Of a stretch of 64,000 nucleotides of DNA, positions 20,225 to 22,360 are shown piece by piece (position 1 is the first letter of the stretch; each line of letters begins with the position of its first letter). The stretch comes from Tricharina praecox (Eukaryota). The notes below the pieces were generated by a model that was given only the letters and a program-made list of their open reading frames with translations, did no database searches and was not told the DNA's origin. Position numbers and translations under genes: made by a program. The stretch lies in the NCBI RefSeq assembly GCF_024521635.1, contig NW_026250414.1:310001-374000 (forward strand). The letters are read 5' to 3'.

Positions 20225-20437
20225 TAGATAGTGCATATGCTGTGTGAGCTAAGAGGTTGCGAAGAAACTTTGCAGGATTTTTTTCTTTCTTACGCGCTTC
20301 ATCTTTCATCCCACCACTCCCCGCAACATCCACCACCACCACCAAACAGCCACCACCACCAAACAGCCACCACCACAACCCACTATTTCATCACCTGCTT
20401 CCTCCCACACCTCTATCATCACATCATCATCATCATC

Positions 20438-22360
20438 ATGTCACTGGCCTTTGGCTCTAATGCTACATCATCCAAGAAGCGAAGAATACAGGACCCACAG
20501 TCACCCCACTCCAGCAAGCCCCGCACAGTGCAGAAGAAATCCACAGGCTCTCCAGCGGTGGCGAATGAAAATGCGTCGACAACACGAGATGCCTCGTCTC
20601 AGGTGAAAAGTTTCCAGGAATTGATCCTCTCCAGCACACTCCAAAAGGCCGTTTCCGATCTGGAACTCTCGGAATTGTCACCACTGCAGTCTCGGGCCAT
20701 CCCTGCACTGCTTGATGGGAAAGATGTAAGCCGATCCGCTCCCGTCTCACTCACCGGGTTCTGACGCTCCTAGGTTGCTGCTGTAGCACAGGCCGGACGG
20801 GATACTATGCTTTCTTTCTTGGTTCCTGCCGTGGCTTTGCTGGAAAAACACCGTTTTCATACCCGACATGGTACTGGAGTGCTTATCGTGACGCCTGACC
20901 GCGAAACCGCCGTTCAGATATCTGGACTAGCTTCGGAACTGCTTGCTGGCACTTCGCATACCGTCGGGATGGTCATTGAGGGCGCCAACCGCGGTGCCGA
21001 AGAGCAGAAATTGGACAGAGGCGTCAACCTGTTGGTTGCCACGCCAGCGAGATTACTCGAGCACATGCGTGATGTGACTTCATTCGTGTACAAGAACATG
21101 AAGGCGTTCTTCGTGTACGGAGCAGATTCGCTCGTCGAGCAGGGGATGCAGAAGCAAGTGCGAGAAATAATCTCACTCATTCCCAAGAAGGGCCGTACAT
21201 CTGGAGTTTTTGGGACGGAGAGGACGGACGGGGTTGAGGGTCTCGTCGAGCTTATTTGCCGTCCCGAAGCAGTTAAAATCACGTCGACGACAGGCACATC
21301 AACCGATGCGAATGCATCTACTGCCCAGACCCAGGGTTACGTTATTGTTGAGGCTGATAAACGATTCCTGTTGCTTTACTCGTTTCTGAAGAAATTTCAG
21401 AGAAAGAGGATGGTTGTGTTTGTCTCGTCGACGTCTGGTGTGCTGTTCTGTGAGGAAGCGTTTGGTTCCTTCGATTTGCCGGTCCATGCCATCCATGGAA
21501 GGCAGAATGCGAAGTCACGGGCGGCTGCCTTCTCTGGTTTCCTGAACGATGCTGAGGGCACTCTTATATGCACAGAGGAGGCAGTCCAAGGACTTGATGT
21601 ACGTTTTTCTTCACTTCAGCGCTCTCCTGATCGCCGTGTTTCTGACATTACTCCAGGTTCCATCTGCAGATTGGGTCATCCAGTACGATCCGCCGCGATC
21701 CATCAGAGACTTTATTCACCGGCGGGGGACAGTTCAAGGTCGACCGGTTGCCTTCGTTCTACCCAGCGAAAGCGGCTTCATCGATAGTCTTAAAACTGCG
21801 GGCATTGTGGTCGAGGAATTTGACTTCCCCAAGAATAAGCTCATCAATATCCAGAGTCAGCTCGAGAAGTTGGTGTCGAAAAACTTCGAGCTTCACACAT
21901 TAGCAAAGGGAGGATTCAGGTTAGTCACATCCCTCGCTTCCCCCATGCGTACCCACCTAGCACACATTTTTCCTATGATGAGAATCTATGGTCCGTGTTG
22001 TTGATTGCGGCTTAAGACCCCGCGTGTCATGAAATGAAACCCATTGAATTTAATTCACCTCTGAGTCTATCTTTTTTTTGCCATTACATTTTCCCTCGCA
22101 TCGCTTCTTTGGTACAGCGACTAACGTCGCATCGCATGTGCAGGGCATTCCTTCAAGACTACAACCACCACCCCGACAGCAAAATATTCCCCGTCACAGC
22201 CCTCGACGTGCGGAAAGTCGGAAAAAGCTTTGGGTTTGACACACCGCCCCGAGTCGAAGTGAAAGTGGAAGAGAAGGTGGTCGTGGATAAGAACAAGCGG
22301 ATATATGGGCCCGAAAAGCCCAAGGCCGGCAAGAAACGCAAGGCGTCAGTCGTAGCTTAA
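20438..22360 (+). CDS. HAS1/DDX18-like DEAD-box protein with degenerate catalytic motifs (pseudo-helicase), 530 aa
   Basis: Exons 20438-20725, 20774-21598, 21657-21919, 22144-22360 total 1593 nt in frame. Has1-like signatures DKRFLLLYSFLKK, NIQSQLEKL and KSFGFDTPPRV are retained, while motifs I, II, III, V and VI are altered. Confidence 0.88.
21972..22067 (+). ncRNA. U18: Box C/D snoRNA, U18/snR18 family, intronic
   Basis: Box C ATGATGA 21975-21981. Guide TGGTCCGTGTT 21989-21999 is complementary to the conserved LSU rRNA segment AACACGGACCA. D' TTGA 22001-22004, C'-like ATGAAATGA 22029-22037, box D CTGA 22061-22064. Lies inside a 224-nt intron. Confidence 0.85.

Follow-up and report, generated by a model that had tools for sequence, protein, structure and literature searches.

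Why should an intron in the gene for a helicase that appears to have lost its catalytic motifs contain what looks like an RNA methylation guide, and does either explain the survival of the other? The question is raised by a locus of the Pezizales fungus Tricharina praecox, in a stretch of 64,000 nucleotides (nt) analysed here (contig NW_026250414.1, positions 310,001 to 374,000, forward strand; hereafter the window, whose own numbering is used throughout). We put at roughly 85% the probability that intron 3 of a catalytically dead HAS1 paralogue in this window holds a working gene for U18 (snR18/SNORD18), a box C/D small nucleolar RNA (snoRNA). U18 is among the oldest and best studied methylation guides, and finding the RNA itself is no surprise. 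What is new is the host, a conserved HAS1 paralogue that is catalytically dead, together with evidence of a U18-host pairing lasting across Pezizales and of U18 as a mobile passenger in fungi, with copies in EF-1beta, ORC4 and RNR1 introns, beside eL42 and in a five-copy tandem.

Box C, an 11-nt guide to large-subunit (LSU) rRNA, a D' box in the register of U18 and box D, all four of which a preliminary description of this DNA had pointed out, can be read in the intron sequence and in the Rfam alignment (Table 1), with 90 nt from box C to box D. The guide is the exact complement of LSU rRNA AACACGGACCA, a sequence that occurs once in the window (minus strand, 21989-21999) against an expectation of 0.02 per window and that was matched in 2 of 100 shuffles. 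Guide and D' align with the SNORD18 consensus GGUCCGUGUUUCUGA, so the element has the register of U18 and would address the same rRNA adenosine. The fifth nucleotide upstream of D' is U21996 and, in the LSU target context ...AACACGGACC..., this position of the 11-nt complement falls on the equivalent of yeast A649. The stretch that aligns with the C' region of our covariance model, described below, probably represents box C'. Between D' and C', the loop UUAAGAC pairs at seven of seven positions, one of them a G-U pair, with rRNA GUCUUGA, a heptamer that we take to lie directly 5' of the U18 target, and the loop thus has the position and pairing of an accessory guide. Its conservation in the 30 training sequences of that model stems in part from the pattern by which they were selected and is not independent evidence. 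A second guide upstream of box D was considered and rejected, as that stretch is the covarying hairpin 2.

A permissive Rfam search of 351 nt gave SNORD18 as its best match (24.6 bits, E 0.019). The search proposed in the preliminary description therefore does find the family, but below its gathering score of 41 bits. In a control, eight of nine fungal U18 loci (seven EF-1beta-hosted, one ORC4-hosted) also remained below 41 bits, at 27.2-34.3 bits, and control locus L041 had no SNORD18 match at E<=1. The sub-threshold score therefore does not speak against membership in U18; the Rfam threshold for SNORD18 misses the U18 of filamentous fungi. In RF00093 the alignment takes in box C, guide and D' (model positions 1-71), but this 71-position model is without the two internal hairpins described below and misplaces the 3' end of the element at 22033.

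A model of the fungal form was built from a metagenome scan whose pattern combined box C with the guide core and a TGA resembling D'; the scan returned at least 138 matches at at least 118 loci; 34 of the matches listed share a distinctive architecture with the window. The resulting covariance model, R1, was trained on 30 distinct fungal U18 sequences, leaving out L009, L040, the truncated L052, the duplicate L081 and the window itself. RNAalifold on a MAFFT alignment yielded a meaningless five-pair structure, which was replaced by a hand-drawn structure of two hairpins. With filters off, R1 matches the window at 21970-22069 over its full length (1-96) with 70.6 bits and E 8e-13, a rough value because calibration was shortened. 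This is the sole match in 64 kb: the runner-up reaches 6.7 bits (E 8.5), and R1 found no second U18 in the window. The training members themselves score 58-106 bits, a span that includes this value.

Both hairpins show covariation. In an alignment of 37 fungal U18 sequences that is fitted to the model and leans towards the drawn structure, double-sided changes occur in all eight pairs; the paired share of hairpin cells is 90.5%, whereas shuffles give 72.4% and sliding the partner gives 31-60%. Hairpin 1 has double changes in four of four pairs and 94.9% of its cells paired; for hairpin 2 the figures are four of four and 86%. In the R1 alignment the window retains hairpin 2 using entirely different letters. 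These observations, together with the SNORD18 alignment, make the assignment of the intron 3 element to the U18-type box C/D snoRNA genes well supported, as had been proposed.

The intron is real, and the host gene is transcribed and spliced at this site. Contigs from three runs of three studies (X2, X4 and X5; X2 and X4 are presumed to be RNA, and the data are in the form of contigs) skip exactly the 224 nt from 21920 to 22143, with GT..AG ends, and join exon 3 to exon 4 without error. The introns at 20726-20773 (48 nt) and 21599-21656 (58 nt) are likewise skipped in these contigs and have GT..AG ends, and intron 3 is thus the sole long intron of the gene, as first described. Because these contigs are spliced they leave intron 3 uncovered; the unspliced DNA of the locus is present with zero differences in a soil-metagenome contig (X1 record 5). 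The U18 element lies 50 nt from the 5' splice site; on its other side the branch A is about 55 nt away and the 3' splice site 74-79 nt. The gap between box D and CTAAC, given earlier as about 57 nt, measures 56 nt.

The host protein retains the HAS1 domain order (DEAD, Helicase_C, SPB4-like C-terminal extension), with Pfam scores of 47.8 bits for DEAD, 34.2 bits for CTE_SPB4 and 23.4 bits for Helicase_C, the last barely below its cut-off of 23.5. Its closest canonical relatives are HAS1/DDX18 proteins (39-45% identity). The description of the host as a dead helicase holds for every motif concerned: AQAGRDTM stands for the Walker A motif AKTGSGKT, YGAD for DEAD, GTE for SAT, and motif VI is HRRG with a five-residue gap in place of HRVGRTAR. 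Closer relatives are metagenomic proteins (87-88% identity), Sphaerosporella brunnea (69%) and Trichophaea hybrida (65%), and an Ascodesmis nigricans relative at 43% identity has lost the identical set of motifs. Throughout the aligned group Walker A is gone (AQAGRDTM, SASERDAI, SSPQDDII), DEAD is replaced (YGAD in the window; YGAT, YEAG, YGPG, YDAG and YEAE in orthologues), and SAT and motif VI are lost, while canonical HAS1 proteins retain all ATPase motifs. Judged by these alignments, the host is a HAS1 paralogue without any ATPase motif that is conserved across Pezizales and, as far as the searches show, appears restricted to them. Its open frame, conserved between genera at 43-88% identity, is an argument that the protein is retained on its own account; survival of the gene therefore needs no snoRNA to explain it. 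The earlier suggestion that the snoRNA is a reason why the locus stays transcribed is accordingly left unsupported.

Evidence from orthologous introns comes from database protein open reading frames (ORFs) that continue beyond exon 3 into intron sequence, taken in place of orthologue DNA. The read-through ORF of the window (21657-22001) served as query and gave six matches in a word-indexed collection and 577 matches at E<=0.001 in a representative library, the best 150 of the 577 being listed. Among the tails listed, 18 dead-helicase ORFs, recognised by eye, read through past ...GFR into the intron, and nine of the 18 contain translated U18 (P0151, P0152, P0154, P0155, P0156, P0161, P0163, P0170 and P0176). 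The tails are FSYDENLWSVLLIAA in P0154 and P0155, TRDEKLWSVLLIAA in P0152, YMMRNWSVLLIAVKTPRVMKSSPLNLYSPLI in P0151, where they cover box C through box D, SMMRTLVRVVDCGLRPRVS in P0156, VMINYGPCC in P0161, SMMRTYGPCC in P0176, IMMRIFLVRVYEAA in P0163, whose exon is Ascodesmis-like, and SYDENKLVRVNEAD in P0170. In the last of these proteins one half of motif VI survives (SRLGRTATKS); this protein may represent an intermediate.

The U18 tails follow directly after the identical exon end in three frames (WSVLL, GPCC, LVRV), and they align to the window intron in three frames or match translated EF-1beta-hosted U18 genes. As the frame varies, it is the nucleotide sequence and not the peptide that is conserved. 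The intron peptide upstream of box C varies among the nine orthologues, whose exon 3 identity to the window ranges from 44% to 85%. Conservation of boxes and guide in orthologous introns, on which the preliminary description had staked its claim, is thus found in nine read-through ORFs, each time at the same exon end; the pairing of snoRNA and host is therefore old. Five further tails (P0131, P0153, P0158, P0159, P0167), of 14-19 residues, are too short to judge.

In canonical HAS1 read-throughs of other organisms (P0171, P0241, P0266, P0289) an intron interrupts the gene at the identical codon, following ...AYR, and the tails contain no U18. Since canonical HAS1 shares the intron position, that position seems older than the dead paralogue. 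The annotated C-terminus of the public Trichophaea hybrida protein (P0124) is GFRPRVS; the window frame GLRPRVS at 22009-22029 matches this end with E 0.53, a value that is weak alone. The C-terminus is a probable mis-annotation in which exon 3 was spliced onto an AG within the U18 loop, and the snoRNA would account for it.

Table 1. Exons, intron 3 and snoRNA features of the host locus, in window numbering
Feature	Position	Strand	Evidence or remark
Host exon 1 (ATG 20438)	20438..20725	+	Exon 1/2 joint 20725>20774 in X2, X4, X5 contigs
Host exon 2, degenerate DEAD-box core	20774..21598	+	Pfam; alignment with canonical HAS1 and orthologues
Host exon 3, end of helicase C domain, motif VI down to HRRG; ends ...LAKGGFR	21657..21919	+	
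Intron 3, 224 nt, GTTAGT...CTAAC (22121-22125)...CAG	21920..22143	+	Contig skip in three runs, three studies
U18-type box C/D snoRNA gene	21970..22069	+	Extent of R1 match; mature ends predicted
Box C AUGAUGA	21975..21981	+	Read from sequence; Rfam and R1 alignments
Methylation guide UGGUCCGUGUU	21989..21999	+	Complement of LSU rRNA AACACGGACCA; aligned to SNORD18 guide
Box D' UUGA, non-canonical (without 5' C)	22001..22004	+	Sequence and Rfam alignment
Hairpin 1, GCGG (22007-22010) / CCGC (22020-22023)	22007..22023	+	Loop UUAAGAC 22012-22018
C'-like box AUGAAAUGA, UGA..UGA with two inserted A	22029..22037	+	Aligned to C' region of model
Hairpin 2, GAAU (22046-22049) / AUUC (22053-22056)	22046..22056	+	Directly precedes ACCUCUGA
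Box D CUGA	22061..22064	+	Sequence; R1 alignment
Host exon 4, SPB4-like C-terminal extension, stop TAA 22358-22360	22144..22360	+	Pfam CTE_SPB4 34.2 bits; joint seen in contigs

In yeast, U18 is hosted by the intron of EFB1, the gene for EF-1beta. Of the 138 metagenome matches listed, 17, each from a locus of its own but including two duplicate contigs, are followed on the same strand by an EF-1beta exon at a distance of 132-210 nt, an assignment backed by the Pfam domains EF1_GNE and EF-1_beta_acid, and clustering of flanking ORFs places 19 of the loci listed in common contexts upstream and 16 downstream of U18. The EF-1beta intron thus appears to be, for the most part, the usual fungal home of U18. 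Other hosts occur as well: one copy (L045:12439-12535) lies in an ORC4 intron between the AAA and ORC4_C exons, another (L070:11900-11987) in the 3' part of the gene for the large subunit of ribonucleotide reductase (RNR1), directly after the barrel domain, and a third (L022:9800-9891) follows an eL42 (L44) reading frame at a distance of about 290 nt. Locus L070 gave the single match to the host among the loci listed, a DEAD-box gene of 31% identity that lies 4 kb away on the opposite strand. No host orthologue was found near U18 among the 118 metagenomic loci listed, a set that says nothing on relatives. With U18 in EF-1beta, ORC4 and RNR1 introns, the choice of host looks opportunistic; U18 copies thus move between introns, the dead HAS1 gene being one more host.

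Two contigs deserve mention beside these. A metagenomic contig of 2.7 kb carries five U18 copies head to tail (L018:516-1761) at a spacing of about 270-310 nt, scoring 52.8-82.7 bits. A 2735-nt contig (X1 record 6), from the soil run that contains the window DNA, matches the window at 21989-22023 only, with one mismatch and one deletion; it has the D' context GUUGA, and its flanks resemble those of the EF-1beta-hosted L041. It could be a canonical U18 copy of the same or a related fungus.

EF-1beta-hosted fungal U18 genes (L005, L013, L015, L016, L023 and others) have the same order of elements and, in the model alignment, are 60-70% identical to the window copy. They differ in their host, in hairpin 2 (GCGC/GCGC versus GAAU/AUUC in the window) and in a guide that is one to two pairs longer. 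Of the 37 aligned sequences, L041 alone shares the D' context GUUGAUU with the window. A closest relationship of the window U18 to L041 was not borne out, L041 being outside the 12 nearest sequences.

The U18 of Saccharomyces cerevisiae (snR18) lies in an intron of a protein-coding gene and is, like the window element, an intronic box C/D RNA with one D'-linked guide, directed to 25S-Am649 with Cm650 (PMC5389607, PMC3116282, PMC8053091). Further likenesses are a D' box without the 5' C, a C' box with inserted nucleotides and an accessory guide between D' and C' (PMC3116282, PMC5389607). The yeast C', AUGAGUGA, has a one-nucleotide insertion and its D' is AUGA (PMC5389607), and these unusual boxes let yeast U18 methylate two adjacent nucleotides (PMC3116282, PMC5389607). 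The yeast gene differs in its host, EF-1beta instead of a dead HAS1 paralogue, in D' (AUGA versus UUGA here), in the C' insert (one G versus two A here) and in having a terminal stem, of which none was seen here. The filamentous ascomycete Neurospora crassa has two intronic U18 isoforms, Nc CD46A and CD46B, on different chromosomes, with 11- or 12-nt D' guides to 26S-Am635 (PMC2780460); U18 can therefore occupy more than one host. These RNAs are 89 nt long, against about 93-100 nt predicted here, and their host genes are unnamed in that text (PMC2780460). For most intronic snoRNAs of N. crassa the distance from the 5' splice site is 41-60 nt (PMC2780460), compared with 50 nt here. Some snoRNA hosts of N. 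crassa have little coding potential (PMC2780460). No account of this host or of Pezizomycetes snoRNAs was found in the accessible literature, taken as articles apart from their supplements, and the main text of a fungal snoRNAome paper names, in its accessible part, neither U18 nor host genes.

By analogy with intronic snoRNA biology, Snu13, Nop56, Nop58 and Nop1 would assemble on the C/D motifs within the intron; splicing would free the lariat, from which debranching and exonucleases would produce an RNA of about 93-100 nt. Base pairing of the guide with LSU rRNA AACACGGACCA would then be aided by that of the loop UUAAGAC with the adjacent upstream GUCUUGA, and Nop1 would 2'-O-methylate the A that corresponds to 25S-A649 of yeast and 26S-A635 of N. 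crassa. Methylation may extend to the neighbouring C, since D' here, like its yeast counterpart, lacks the 5' C. Splicing is the step of this route that was observed here, and the others are taken from established knowledge.

Several observations weigh against a working U18 gene. At gathering scores Rfam has no match in the window. The guide forms 11 pairs, against 12-13 in many fungal U18 rows, D' (UUGA) and C' deviate from the canonical boxes, and the target site in the fungus's own LSU rRNA is assumed from universal conservation. No terminal stem flanking boxes C and D was seen by eye in the intron sequence; the EF-1beta-hosted fungal U18 copies, likewise read by eye, have none either. Folding shows no excess of stability over shuffles (z 0.72 for the snoRNA, 0.54 for the intron), which is usual for C/D RNAs. 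The transcript evidence consists of contigs, which are unable to reveal a small RNA. Finally, the 28-43-residue tails of P0193, P0242, P0199 and P0202 contain no U18 signature, the family membership of P0199 and P0202 being uncertain; U18 is therefore probably missing in some relatives or lies deeper in their introns.

Short boxes, and an Rfam E-value of about 3.5 if scaled to the whole window, would be compatible with a chance assembly of motifs in a long intron. The R1 match at E 8e-13 in a search of the whole window, the covarying hairpins and the conservation in orthologues refute this idea, to which we assign next to no probability. That the intron holds a redundant, silent or decaying U18 passenger, with the real U18 in an EF-1beta intron, is a more serious proposal. 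It draws on the frequency of the EF-1beta host among the matches listed, on the 11-pair guide and off-consensus D' and C', and on the second U18-like contig with L041-like flanks in the soil run that holds the window DNA. However, the window copy has lost none of its elements, from the boxes and guide to the accessory loop and the two hairpins, and the nine orthologues, the most distant with 44% exon identity, keep U18 whereas the adjacent intron diverges; a neutral copy would have decayed. N. crassa retains two expressed U18 isoforms (PMC2780460). We consider such a passenger very unlikely.

The relation between guide and host allows for three views. The snoRNA could be the main reason for the survival and transcription of the locus, with the helicase frame largely a carrier comparable to non-coding snoRNA hosts. 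A host without any ATPase motif, the joint passage of snoRNA and host across Pezizales and the N. crassa snoRNA hosts with little coding potential (accessible text of PMC2780460) fit this view, but a mere carrier would gain stops, whereas here the frame is open and non-catalytic residues, including those of the SPB4-like extension, are 43-88% identical between genera. In addition, four relatives whose intron shows no U18 signature over its initial 85-130 nt retain the frame, which makes the carrier proposal highly improbable. Alternatively, U18 and host may have formed a fixed gene-within-gene pair acting as a unit since the origin of the paralogue (Pezizomycetes). U18 might have relocated from the EF-1beta intron to become the sole copy, methylation at the A649 site then depending on transcription of the pseudo-helicase; or the pseudo-helicase might act at the same pre-60S step, for example as an ATP-independent clamp holding or releasing U18. 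The accessible literature links yeast Has1 to release of the U14 snoRNA and Dbp3 to U18 maturation. We regard a fixed pair as unlikely, and U18 and the dead helicase are probably not functional partners. Most likely the link is historical: a pre-existing intron captured a U18 copy and was shielded from loss thereafter. The U18 case fits the view that RNA genes make the introns that hold them resistant to loss (PMC3675471).

The canonical HAS1 and EF-1beta genes are both outside the 64-kb window. Directly 5' of the host start codon, the stretch 20320-20448 contains CCACCA/CAT-rich simple repeats, at which contigs of several runs break or carry a 5-nt deletion.

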